From NCBI GenBank assembly GCA_944389585.1, contig CALXMW010000001.1:7748-71747 (forward strand): DNA of 64,000 nucleotides, read 5' to 3'. Below are positions 11,342 through 34,553 of this stretch, piece after piece (position 1 is the first letter of the stretch; every line of letters starts with the position of its first letter). The DNA comes from an uncultured Kiritimatiellota bacterium (lineage in GTDB: Bacteria > Verrucomicrobiota > Kiritimatiellia > RFP12 > DVOR01). The notes under the pieces were generated by a model that worked only from the letters and a program-made list of their open reading frames with translations, was not told the DNA's origin and did no database searches. The position numbers and the translations under genes are program-made.

Positions 11342-11418
<77 letters not shown>

Positions 11419-11425
11419 TTCAGGA

Positions 11426-11502
11426 TGGCGCGCCTTGGAGGATTTGAACCTCCAACCTTCTGATCCGTAGTCAGATGCTCTATCCAATTGAGCTAAAGGC
11501 GC
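11426..11502 (-). tRNA. tRNA-Arg (anticodon ACG)
   Basis: Reverse complement GCGCCTT...; perfect 7-bp acceptor stem, anticodon loop CTACGGA, T-loop TTCAAAT, discriminator G, encoded CCA. Confidence 0.9.
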
Positions 11503-14598: not shown

Positions 14599-14628
14599 AT
14601 TGAAAACGCTTCCCTGAATGCGTTATAA
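14599..14628 (+). promoter_or_regulatory. sigma70-like promoter: -35 TTGAAA (14599-14604), 18-nt spacer, -10 TATAAT (14623-14628)
   Basis: Near-consensus hexamers; GAATGCGTTATAAT matches the recurring motif; 22 nt before ATG 14651. Confidence 0.6.
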
Positions 14629-14650
14629 TAAAGGGCAACAGGAGCGGGTG

Positions 14651-14935
14651 ATGCAGGATTTGTTGCGGCGGATGATGATGATCTTCTTGACGATCGGGGC
14701 GCTGGTGAGCGTCTCGGTGGCCATGAAAAGCATTGTGCCGTCTTACGTGGCCTGGCAGGAAAACAGCGCCCGGCGCGACATGCTGACCAAGGAGCTGGAG
14801 CAAGTCCGCCAGCAAATCGCCGACACCAAGCGCGACATCGAGCGCTTCGGGCGCTCCCCCTATTTCGTGGAGCAGCTGGCGCGCGCCAAGCACCGCGTGG
14901 CCGACAACGAAGTCCTGCTCCTCTTCGAGGATTGA
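14651..14935 (+). CDS. ftsB: FtsB/DivIC-like septum formation initiator
   Basis: 94 aa from ATG 14651 (RBS ggagcgggtg); single N-terminal TM then coiled coil. Confidence 0.6.
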   Translation: MQDLLRRMMMIFLTIGALVSVSVAMKSIVPSYVAWQENSARRDMLTKELEQVRQQIADTKRDIERFGRSPYFVEQLARAKHRVADNEVLLLFED

Positions 14936-14948
14936 GGGCCGCCGCCCG

Positions 14949-15788
14949 ATGGTTCCGGATTCCCTGGTGATTTTGGCCGGCCGCGGGGATTACCCCGCCT
15001 GCGCCCTGGCCGGCGCCCGCGCCGCGGGCGTCAAGCGCATCCTCGTCCTCGGCGTGCGCGGCATGGTCGAGCGGCGCGTCCTGCGCGCGGCCGACGAGGC
15101 CGTCGTCTTCGGCGCGGGCGAGCTGGGCAAGGCGTTGGAGTGGCTGGGGCGCTGCGGCGTGCGCCAGATGATGCTGGTGGGGCAGATCACGCCGCTGGCC
15201 CTTTTCCGCACGCGCTTCGACGCGCTCACGCGCCGCCTCCTCGCCGAACTCCCGGCGAAGAACGCGCACACCATCTTCGGGCGGCTGATCCAGGAGGTCG
15301 AGGCCCGCGGCGTGCGCGTGCTGCCCTCCTCATGCTTCATGGGCGCGCACATCCCCGACGCGGGCATCCTCACCGCGCGGGGGCCGGACGCCCGCGAGGC
15401 GCGGGACATCGCCTTCGGCCACAAGGTCGCCATGGGCGTGTGCGCGCTGGACGTCGGGCAGACCATCCTGGTCAAGGACGGGATGGTGCTGGCCGTCGAG
15501 GCCTTCGAGGGCACCAACGCCACCGTGCGCCGCGGCGCGCGGCTCGGCGGCAAGGGCGCCGTCATGGTCAAGGTCGCCAAGGCCGGGCACGATATGCGCT
15601 TTGACATCCCCGTCTTCGGCGAGCACACCGTGCGCCTCTGCCGCAAATGCGGCGTCACGGCCGTCGCCTTCCAGGCCCACCGGCTGGTGATGATCGATCG
15701 CCCGCGCGTCGTGTCCCTGGCCGACCGCTACGGCATCGCCCTGGTCTCCCTGCGCACCGAGCTCCCCCCCGCGCCGCTGTTGCCGTGA
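14949..15788 (+). CDS. lpxI: UDP-2,3-diacylglucosamine hydrolase LpxI (DUF1009)
   Basis: 279 aa; conserved LpxI blocks DVGQTILVKDGMVLAVEAFEGTNAT and MRFDIPVFG. Confidence 0.75.
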   Translation: MVPDSLVILAGRGDYPACALAGARAAGVKRILVLGVRGMVERRVLRAADEAVVFGAGELGKALEWLGRCGVRQMMLVGQITPLALFRTRFDALTRRLLAELPAKNAHTIFGRLIQEVEARGVRVLPSSCFMGAHIPDAGILTARGPDAREARDIAFGHKVAMGVCALDVGQTILVKDGMVLAVEAFEGTNATVRRGARLGGKGAVMVKVAKAGHDMRFDIPVFGEHTVRLCRKCGVTAVAFQAHRLVMIDRPRVVSLADRYGIALVSLRTELPPAPLLP

Positions 15789-15810
15789 TTTTGCGCTTGC
15801 GCGGCGGCGG

Positions 15811-15825
15811 CGGTTTTGGTATCGT
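15811..15825 (+). promoter_or_regulatory. candidate promoter of the leu leader (GGTTTTGGTATCGT)
   Basis: The -10 TATCGT ends 10 nt before leader ATG 15836, implying a near-leaderless leader transcript. Confidence 0.4.
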
Positions 15826-15835
15826 TGGAGCCGTC

Positions 15836-15925
15836 ATGAAACGCAAGGACTTCGCGCTTGGCCTTCGACTTAGCCTCCTGCCGCTGTTGGGCGGCGGGTC
15901 GCGGCGGGCTTGGCGCGCGGAATGA
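15836..15925 (+). CDS. candidate leucine-rich leader peptide (leu operon attenuation)
   Basis: 29 codons MKRKDFALGLRLSLLPLLGGGSRRAWRAE; 7 Leu in 11 residues; followed by terminator hairpin and then leuA. Confidence 0.5.
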   Translation: MKRKDFALGLRLSLLPLLGGGSRRAWRAE

Positions 15926-15950
15926 GGCGCGCATGACGTGACGAAACGGT

Positions 15951-15990
15951 GGCCTCCGCGGGTTGGTATGACGGCGGGGGCCTTCTTTTT
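15951..15990 (+). terminator. attenuator/terminator hairpin GGCCTCCG...CGGGGGCC + TTCTTTTT
   Basis: 8-bp stem with one G-U pair, U-rich tail ending 30 nt before leuA RBS; overlapping alternative hairpin GCGCGC(ggaatgag)GCGCGC at the leader stop. Confidence 0.55.
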
Positions 15991-16037
15991 GCGAAAGGCC
16001 CGCTGTCCCCAAGGGGCCAATGAACAGGAAGCGAAAC

Positions 16038-17618
<1,581 letters not shown>

Positions 17619-17635: not shown

Positions 17636-18199
17636 GTGGACATCGCCACGCTGGACGCCCGCGCCCTCCGCCTAGGCCAGAGCCTCACGCTCGAGGGCCT
17701 CGTGCACACCGGGCGCGACCGCTTCCACAAGCACCTCCACGAAGGCGGCGCCCTCCCCCCCGGCGTCGACCTGCGCGCCTCCGCCCTCTACCACTGCGGC
17801 CCCGTCATGGTGAAGGACGCCGCGGGCGCCTGGCGCATGGTCGCCGGCGGGCCCACCACCTCCTCCCGCGAGGAGCCGTACGAGGCCGACGTCATCGCCC
17901 GCTTCGGCCTGCGCGTCATCATCGGCAAAGGCGGCATGGGCCCCAAGACCGTCGCCGCCTGCAAGGAACACGGGTGCGTCTACCTTCAGGCCGTCGGCGG
18001 CGCGGGCGCCCTCATCGCCGCCTGCGTCGAGCGCGTCGAAGGCGTCGACTTCCTCGAAGACTTCGGCCCCGCCGAGGCCATGTGGCACCTCCGCGTCCGC
18101 GGCTTCCCCGTCACCGTCGCCATCGACGCCCACGGCAACAGCCTCTACGACCAAGTCGCCGCACGCTCTGCCGAACGCCTCCGCGCCCTCCTCGCCTGA
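17636..18199 (+). CDS. class I fumarate hydratase-type Fe-S hydro-lyase, beta (C-terminal domain) subunit
   Basis: 187 aa from GTG 17636 (RBS gaaaggagcc); FumA_C/TtdB-like block VIIGKGGMGPKT...VYLQAVGGAGA; no alpha subunit adjacent. Confidence 0.7.
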   Translation: MDIATLDARALRLGQSLTLEGLVHTGRDRFHKHLHEGGALPPGVDLRASALYHCGPVMVKDAAGAWRMVAGGPTTSSREEPYEADVIARFGLRVIIGKGGMGPKTVAACKEHGCVYLQAVGGAGALIAACVERVEGVDFLEDFGPAEAMWHLRVRGFPVTVAIDAHGNSLYDQVAARSAERLRALLA

Positions 18200-33707: not shown

Positions 33708-34553
33708 ATGAAACCGATCATTGAGCCGCATATCCACATGATCGCGCGGACGACGGACGATTATATGGCCATGCACAAGAACGGCATCCGCGTATGCGTG
33801 GAGCCTTCGTTCTGGTTGGGCGAGAACCGCCGCTACGCCGGCTCCTTCTTCGACTATTTCCGCCTGTCGCTGGAGTTTGAGCACACGCGCGCGGCGCGCT
33901 ACGGCATCGACCATTGGAGCGCCATCGGCATGAACCCGAAGGAGGCCGAGGATCGGCGCCTGGCCGACGCGGTGATCGACGGGATGGGCGAGTATCTGGA
34001 CCACCCGCGGTGCGTGGCGCTCGGGGAGATCGGCTTCAACAACATCACCCAGAACGAGGAGCACGCCCTGGTGCGCCAGCTGCGCCTGGCCGAGGAACGC
34101 AAGATGCCGGTGGTGCTGCACCTGCCCCACTTCAACAAGCTCAAGGGCATCAAGCGCGTGCTGGAAATCATCAAGGCCGAGGGGCTGACGCGCGAGCGCA
34201 TCGACATCGACCACAACGTGGAGGAGACCATCGGCCTGGCGCTGGAGAGCGGCTGCTACGCCGGCATGACCGTCTACCCCTACTCCAAGCTCTCGCCCGA
34301 GCGCGTGAGCGCGATGATCAAGGAGCACGGCCACACGCGCGTCATCGTCAACGGCTCGGCCGACTGGGGCATCAGCGACCCGCTCTCGCTCGTCAAGGTC
34401 GTGGCGCGCCTGCGCCAGGACGGCTTCGGCGAGCAGGTCATCGAAGACCTCACCCACAACACGCCCATGGCCTTCTATTCCGCCTCGCCCCACTGGAAGC
34501 CGGACTTCGACATCGTGCCGCAGGATCCCGCCACCTACCAGCGCCAGCCCTGA
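33708..34553 (+). CDS. TatD-family metal-dependent hydrolase
   Basis: 281 aa; amidohydrolase TIM-barrel motifs (PHIHM..., HLPHF, DHN). Confidence 0.75.
   Translation: MKPIIEPHIHMIARTTDDYMAMHKNGIRVCVEPSFWLGENRRYAGSFFDYFRLSLEFEHTRAARYGIDHWSAIGMNPKEAEDRRLADAVIDGMGEYLDHPRCVALGEIGFNNITQNEEHALVRQLRLAEERKMPVVLHLPHFNKLKGIKRVLEIIKAEGLTRERIDIDHNVEETIGLALESGCYAGMTVYPYSKLSPERVSAMIKEHGHTRVIVNGSADWGISDPLSLVKVVARLRQDGFGEQVIEDLTHNTPMAFYSASPHWKPDFDIVPQDPATYQRQP

Follow-up and report, generated by a model that had tools for sequence, protein, structure and literature searches.

The enterobacterial leu leader (leuL; Rfam RF00512, Leu_leader) consists of a short open reading frame (ORF) with a run of Leu codons that includes rare ones, followed by alternative hairpins before leuA, the first gene of the leuABCD operon. 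A ribosome stalled on the Leu run leads to read-through. In the E. coli trp attenuator, in which the control codons are Trp, a hairpin lies within or next to the leader ORF and a defined 1:2 pairing sequesters segment 2. Segment 2 is located downstream of the stop codon and is partly covered by a ribosome at the stop, and the antiterminator has to form first because the terminator is the stronger of the two. In Actinobacteria, leaderless Leu-rich leader peptides are known directly before monocistronic leuA (PMC8079986, PMC3890552, PMC1262725). Examples are LeuL1 of S. lividans, MRFGLLLLSCRGEGL (PMC8079986), the cg0303 leader of C. glutamicum (PMC3890552) and the 'LEU element' (PMC1262725). The actinobacterial leaders are without a typical Rho-independent terminator; proposals for them are a pairing of the Leu run with the leuA Shine-Dalgarno sequence or a pseudoknot (PMC8079986, PMC1262725). 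When mutated, the similar-looking leuA leader of Streptomyces coelicolor did not act as a classical attenuator would, according to PMC1262725. In the literature that we searched, no attenuators were found for Kiritimatiellota, Verrucomicrobia or Lentisphaerae.

We examined a module upstream of leuA in a 64,000-nt stretch of DNA from an uncultured Kiritimatiellota bacterium (the window). In all likelihood the module is a leader-peptide (ribosome-mediated) attenuator that makes expression of leuA and an adjacent Fumerase_C gene depend on how much charged tRNA-Leu is available. It is most likely ordinary in kind, but belongs to a sequence family that is uncatalogued so far. The predicted logic is that of the enterobacterial leu leader, with which the module shares no sequence or structure homology. 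Its Leu codons are interspersed (L-G-L-R-L-S-L-L-P-L-L) where the enterobacterial leader has four in a row, it appears to start without a leader where the enterobacterial one has a Shine-Dalgarno sequence, its antiterminator strand lies inside the ORF, 5' of the stop codon, and the genes that follow are leuA and Fumerase_C rather than leuABCD. With the actinobacterial leaders it shares a Leu-rich and apparently leaderless peptide directly before leuA, but it differs from them in having a covarying, conserved terminator with a U tract together with an antiterminator, in its PVC-group host and in its longer peptide (27-29 aa). As in the trp attenuator, a hairpin lies within the leader ORF, the antiterminator is weaker than the terminator and a ribosome at the stop codon would cover part of segment 2. 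In contrast to trp, the module has Leu control codons and a segment 2 that precedes the stop codon, and no defined 1:2 pairing to sequester that segment was found conserved.

Because the mechanism is a textbook one, the conceptual gain is small. Read as an attenuator, the module would bring leader-peptide attenuation with a full set of parts (promoter, leaderless ORF, internal hairpin, antiterminator and terminator) to uncultured gut bacteria of the PVC group (Lentisphaerota / Kiritimatiellota). It would also be a compact natural leaderless attenuator with a conserved terminator, in contrast to the terminator-less leuA leaders of Actinobacteria. The annotation gains a predicted leucine regulation of leuA and of the Fumerase_C gene next to it, and an alignment and a covariance model (R1) now describe an RNA family that Rfam lacks.

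Leader ORF and its conservation

The mini-ORF occupies positions 15836-15925 on the forward strand (ATG at 15836, TGA at 15923-15925), downstream of an lpxI-like gene that ends at 15788. Its 29 codons and TGA encode the hydrophobic peptide MKRKDFALGLRLSLLPLLGGGSRRAWRAE. Seven of the 11 residues at positions 8-18 are Leu, encoded by CTT (three times), CTC, CTG (twice) and TTG, exactly as the first-pass annotation had read from the sequence. This putative control-codon run, CUU GGC CUU CGA CUU AGC CUC CUG CCG CUG UUG, spans 15857-15889 (+). Leu accounts for 10.9% of residues in the genes of the window, which have a high GC3, and at that frequency the binomial probability of seven or more Leu per 11 residues is approximately 4e-5. 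In the same genes CUU makes up 5.1% of Leu codons and CGA 2.0% of Arg codons. Against these residue and codon frequencies, both the Leu density and the string CUU-GGC-CUU-CGA-CUU are unusual.

Whether a Leu-rich mini-ORF is conserved before orthologous leuA genes was a test of the attenuator reading that had been set beforehand. We took the leuA loci of 19 relatives whose LeuA is 65-97% identical (L001-L008, L081-L085 and L166-L171). These are uncultured gut bacteria of the PVC group, with records labelled Candidatus Spyradenecus, Lentisphaeraceae or Kiritimatiellae. The module, with its Leu-rich mini-ORF, was found directly 5' of leuA in 17 of these 19 (65% LeuA identity or more), and LeuA identity across the 17 ranges from 69 to 97%. 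The ORFs of these 17 relatives start at the same place as that of the window. The genes 5' of the module vary between genomes, and the module stays with leuA. The relatives' leader ORFs span 19-29 codons, so that ORF length is conserved, and they are retained in relatives of 41-50% GC. Example leader peptides are MRHMEFALGLRLSLLPLTAVGRGCLGA, MLHGLIANLLRLKLLSLTGDNQRVAVRNV, MNNVTGQALFRLTALLLLRSGADADCFA, MKTCAQRLFTRLTSLLLLSNRAWVCAR and MNRTIQSFNLLLGILIRNA.

Over 16 leaders, Leu makes up 23% of residues, compared with the 10.9% in window genes. Counted from the CGA codon, Leu occupies positions +1 and +4 in 16 of 16 leaders, +6 in 14 of 16 and +7 in 11 of 16. Synonymous codons hold Leu in frame, with up to four different Leu codons at a position among these 16 leaders. 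The N-terminal residues are free to vary among relatives. In L001, a 1-nt deletion in a hairpin loop frame-shifts the C-terminus of the leader and leaves the RNA sequence nearly unchanged. A GCGG that follows the hairpin inside the ORF (hairpin A, below) is conserved and falls in different reading frames among the genomes. The Leu run is kept as codons, the rest is kept as RNA and the length is kept, which is the pattern expected of an attenuator leader. The free N-terminus and the L001 frameshift are what one expects of a leader whose only important features are its control codons and the site of its stop.

Two of the loci with the module, L083 (636-782) and L084 (1644-1797), form a divergent sub-family of leaders that uses CUA codons. 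L083 has three CUA codons, and the L084 leader has just two Leu codons. The two relatives without leader ORF, hairpin A and terminator are L166 (LeuA 87% identical) and L171 (65%). Both retain a promoter-like site, TGGTATGAT / TGGTATACT (L166:1440-1503 and L171:1440-1503), and they represent natural variants in which the attenuator has been lost or is absent. In L166 the kept promoter leads straight into a short UTR.

Putative promoter, terminator and antiterminator

A -35-like hexamer, TTGCGC (15797-15802, +), is separated by a 17-nt spacer from an extended -10, TGgTATCGT (15817-15825, +). TTG is invariant in the -35-like hexamer, whose promoter function is predicted from its sequence and position. 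The motif TGnTAnnnT was present in 18 of 18 leaders, and TTG(A/C)NN was found 17-18 nt 5' of it in each. The distance from the -10 to the leader ATG is 6-11 nt in all 18 sequences and 10 nt in the window, and no conserved Shine-Dalgarno sequence lies between the two in the 18 sequences. With the ATG placed 6-11 nt past a conserved extended -10, the 5' UTR would be approximately 0-4 nt, and the transcript would therefore be leaderless or nearly so. Most likely the leader is translated from a leaderless mRNA or from one with a 5' UTR of up to approximately 4 nt. The first-pass annotation had proposed a leaderless start from the -10 TATCGT (15820-15825), 10 nt before the ATG, and the conservation of the -35, the extended -10 and their spacing in 18 of 18 leaders agrees with that proposal.

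An intrinsic terminator is located at 15951-15990 (+). Its 5' arm GGCCUCCGC (15951-15959) and 3' arm GCGGGGGCC (15974-15982) enclose a loop, and the U tract UUCUUUUU follows the 3' arm directly at 15983-15990. The hairpin has a predicted free energy of -25.1 kcal/mol (z = -2.8), and none of 200 shuffled sequences folded as low. In each of the 18 leaders the terminator hairpin has a fold energy between -17 and -25 kcal/mol and is followed by a U-rich tail. In the alignment, 96.5% of cells in the stem are paired, and both sides have changed in four of nine pairs. The terminator with a U-rich tail before leuA, as had been annotated, is supported by both fold and conservation. It does lie upstream of the leuA ribosome-binding site (RBS), but the interval is 35 nt after the U tract and not the 30 nt first given. 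A simple promoter/terminator scanner gave no match at the locus, because the 14-nt loop exceeds its limit and the promoter hexamers of the window match at only 8 of 12 positions. At 15996-16019 (+), in the gap that separates the terminator from the leuA RBS, the sequence GGCCC...GUCCCC..GGGGCC can make a further small GC-rich hairpin, which is kept in the GC-rich L001, L002 and L004 and not in the AT-richer relatives.

A second hairpin, here called hairpin A, lies inside the ORF at 15877-15898 (+). Its arms CCUGCCGCU / GGCGGCGGG pair 15877-15885 with 15890-15898 over 9 bp around the loop GUUG, and the 5' arm consists of Leu and Pro codons. Hairpin A was predicted by RNAalifold, has 89.6% of cells paired and shows changes on both sides in four of nine pairs. 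It is likely to be a pause hairpin or a 1:2 hairpin. Taken jointly, hairpin A and the terminator have 93% of cells paired, with eight pairs changed on both sides. Their joint covariation score was 0.364. Shuffles gave 0.255, with none of 500 reaching the observed score, and slid partners gave 0.22 or less. RNAalifold found no conserved fold besides these two simple hairpins. Hairpin A was absent from the first-pass annotation.

The same annotation had named the lack of an alternative pairing that excludes the terminator as grounds for refutation. To look for such a pairing, a 14-nt window was slid over each entire leader and the best duplex with the terminator 5' arm was sought. The best partner was located at ATG+57..+66 in 16 of 16 close relatives, and a variant form was found in the remaining two. 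In the window the antiterminator strand (region 2) is UCGCGGCGGGCU at 15899-15910 (+), which pairs with GGCCUCCGCGG at 15951-15961 in 11 bp with one bulge. Over the 16 close relatives, the antiterminator duplex had a mean of -15 kcal/mol, compared with a background of -4 to -6 kcal/mol. When compared with shuffled probes, all 16 z-scores were negative (mean -1.8). The lower-GC relatives alone were significant in this comparison (z = -2.4 to -3.8); for the window, which is GC-rich, the complementarity did not exceed what composition predicts (p = 0.34). In L168 and L169 the terminator arms (5', AGCUUCCGC; 3', GCGGGAGCU) and the antiterminator strand (CGCGGAAGGCU) have changed in concert. The variant antiterminator strand of L083 and L084, CCGGAAUGCUUAGGUUGG, overlaps the stop codon and pairs with the inner part of a longer terminator stem.

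In a fixed column register, 72% of antiterminator cells are paired, compared with 42-51% for slid partners, and two pairs have changed on both sides, but the covariation in this register was not better than that of shuffles. The scarcity of covariation is explained by a terminator arm that hardly varies and by bulges that differ in position. RNAalifold on the MAFFT alignment failed to recover the antiterminator helix. When the transcript was truncated before the 3' arm and a ribosome was masked on any Leu codon, the antiterminator was the minimum-free-energy structure; with the ribosome masked at the stop codon, the truncated window transcript did not fold into the antiterminator. In equilibrium folding with ribosome masks, the terminator was formed at approximately 100% at almost every ribosome position and no switch was seen. 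Since the terminator wins at equilibrium, the antiterminator would have to win kinetically, as in the trp attenuator. Sequestration of the antiterminator strand by upstream codons was predicted in each sequence, with 31-90% of the strand paired, but its register is not conserved. A region-1:region-2 (anti-antiterminator) helix derived from the window was tried and set aside, being unsupported in relatives and without a conserved register, and a partner scan for the antiterminator strand across relatives gave scattered weak matches only.

The first-pass annotation had also drawn attention to overlapping GCGCGC hairpins at the leader stop. The hairpin GCGCGC-GGAAUGAG-GCGCGC is indeed in the sequence, over the stop codon at 15913-15932 (+; arms 15913-15918 and 15927-15932). 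It was found in the window and L002 only and is not conserved in the alignments, nor is it the antiterminator, which is 15899-15910. The GCGCGC hairpin is, as judged from the alignments, outside the conserved mechanism.

We propose that transcription would start approximately 0-4 nt before the leader ATG, from the conserved -35 / extended -10 promoter, and that a ribosome would load at the 5' end of the mRNA and translate the 29-codon leader. When Leu-tRNA is scarce, the ribosome would stall in the Leu run (15857-15889) with a footprint that opens hairpin A and ends at approximately 15899. The G-rich segment 15899-15910 would then be free to pair with 15951-15961 once that is made, so that the terminator 5' arm is held by the antiterminator and RNA polymerase continues into leuA. 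When Leu-tRNA is plentiful, the ribosome would cross the antiterminator strand, reach the stop at 15923 and cover the 3' half of the strand. The terminator (15951-15982 plus the U tract) would form, and transcription would end before leuA.

The spacing of the elements fits this classical attenuation model. When the last Leu codon (15887) is in the A site, the ribosome covers the mRNA to approximately 15899, which is the start of the antiterminator strand. In most relatives 5-14 nt separate the end of the strand from the stop; in L004, L083 and L084 the two overlap. A ribosome at the stop would therefore have melted the strand and would cover its 3' half. What we infer from the sequence is where transcription starts, that the leader is translated, that the two structures compete kinetically and that the module responds to leucine. 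Leucine attenuation upstream of leuA, as first annotated, is thus supported by a conserved module, in-frame Leu codons, a terminator and the position of the antiterminator.

Invariant codons and alternative readings

The sequence CGACUUA (Arg-CGA, Leu-CUU) at 15866-15872 (+) stood out in the alignment, with CGA present in all 16 leaders and CUU in 15 of them. Its conservation at the nucleotide level is independent of genome GC, from approximately 41% to 70%, and both codons are rare in the window. Scans for a pairing partner of CGACUUA gave scattered weak matches, none of them consistent or conserved. CGA-CUU-A (codons 10-12) might be a built-in site of slow decoding or arrest rather than a structural element, which could time or position the leaderless ribosome relative to RNA polymerase or serve as a second, codon-specific input to a Leu attenuator of otherwise classical type; we regard this as an unlikely, speculative reading. 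CGA is decoded by tRNA-Arg(ACG) via inosine wobble, and CUU via G-U wobble. Genes for tRNA-Met(CAT) and tRNA-Arg(ACG) are adjacent at 11342-11502 (-) of the window, and the tRNA-Arg(ACG) at 11426-11502 is expected to be the decoder of the leader's invariant CGA.

The alternative that survives best is that the leader is translated and important, with an output other than classical Rho-independent attenuation. This output could be control of leuA translation, in which the Leu-codon run pairs with the leuA Shine-Dalgarno sequence as in the actinobacterial LEU element, or it could be Rho-dependent termination. It could also be an arrest at the invariant Arg(CGA)-Leu(CUU) that depends on the nascent peptide or on the codons. 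In favour of a non-classical output, CGA-CUU-A is invariant as nucleotides, with no pairing partner found. CCUCC, which occurs both in the Leu run and in the terminator 5' arm, could pair with Shine-Dalgarno-like sequences; the terminator was never disfavoured in equilibrium folding; and the actinobacterial precedent behaved non-classically (PMC1262725). However, the leaders have, in 18 of 18 cases, a strong hairpin with a U tract and covariation, unlike the LEU element. In addition, the position of the antiterminator strand is conserved, and the leuA RBS lies 35 nt past the terminator and takes part in no conserved helix. We therefore consider a non-classical output to be distinctly unlikely, and classical attenuation remains our preferred reading.

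It is more unlikely still that the RNA is a riboswitch-like binder of a ligand, tRNA or protein (a T-box or unknown Leu sensor) in which the ORF is incidental. Such a reading would account for segments that are conserved as RNA over peptide, namely the GCGG in its different frames and the invariant CGACUUA. The terminator loop GGGUUGGUA also has a faint likeness to the T-box sequence GGGUGGUAC, but the loop is absent in L007, L085, L167 and L170. A search of the whole window against Rfam at the gathering threshold found only two tRNAs, both elsewhere, and left Leu_leader RF00512 unmatched. At E values up to 10, the region 15700-16100 gave chance-level matches only, with neither RF00512 nor T-box RF00230 among them. 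Without an Rfam match, and with a conserved structure of two simple hairpins rather than a complex fold, the element does not have the features of a T-box riboswitch (RF00230). Moreover, the ATG, the frame and Leu identity survive synonymous changes, and the length of the ORF and its distance from the promoter are conserved, all of which speaks against an incidental ORF.

It is hardly credible that the ORF encodes a small hydrophobic protein that functions independently, or that it arose by chance, with the hairpin as an insulator or as the terminator of the lpxI operon: stops are rare and short ORFs common at 70% GC and the peptide is hydrophobic, but the ORF persists in the relatives of 41-50% GC, amino acids are conserved in the Leu run only (the L001 C-terminus being frame-shifted), the module accompanies leuA while upstream genes change, and a putative promoter lies between lpxI and the ORF.

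Genes predicted to be regulated, other leuA leaders and nearby sequences

The identity of the gene that follows the attenuator-like module is firm. leuA (2-isopropylmalate synthase; 16038-17618, +) matched the NCBIfam equivalogs NF002086 with 711 bits (cutoff 532) and TIGR00973 with 685.5 bits (cutoff 598.7). Its Shine-Dalgarno sequence AGGAAG (16026-16031, +) is located 6 nt before the ATG at 16038 and is conserved in the alignment. A gene of the Fumerase_C / TtdB-FumA-C beta-subunit type (187 aa; Pfam PF05683, TIGR00723) follows at 17637-18199 (+). The gap between the two genes is 18 nt, contains AAGGAG as a separate Shine-Dalgarno sequence for the second gene and has no terminator, and the leuA-Fumerase_C pair is kept in eight relatives (L081, L082, L085 and L166-L170). 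The Fumerase_C gene is therefore probably co-transcribed with leuA and presumably co-regulated by leucine. No alpha-subunit gene adjoins this lone beta-subunit gene.

As a control, we examined 164 leuA loci from many phyla and found a Leu-dense mini-ORF upstream of leuA in 32 on the sense strand and in none on the antisense strand. The upstream ORF of L011 (Lentisphaerales), which is not distinctly Leu-rich, was not counted. Unrelated Leu-rich ORFs were seen 5' of leuA in distant phyla, at L012, L040, L048, L050, L074, L078, L087, L088 and L125 and also at L128, L142, L145, L157, L159, L160, L163 and L165. They include '...LLLLP*' leaders in gammaproteobacterial loci and 'IIIII..LLL..GSSVV' leaders in spirochaete-like loci, and none was antisense. 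A scan of JGI metagenomes with LeuA returned only homologues of up to 58% identity and no new leaders, and these loci became a negative background. The covariance model R1 matched the element once in the window, with no second copy there and none in 152 other leuA loci.

Two further repeat-rich mini-ORFs in the window were rejected as spurious. The one at 33794 is out of frame inside a TatD-like gene, and the one at 14733, with an Ile run, is antisense to an FtsB-like gene. In the same part of the window, a near-consensus promoter-like sequence (TTGAAA, 17 nt, TATAAT; 14600-14628, +) precedes the latter gene, a 94-aa ORF with its ATG at 14651 (region 14600-14935). This ORF gave no Pfam match; it has one hydrophobic helix and a coiled-coil-like tail and is FtsB/DivIC-like by eye.
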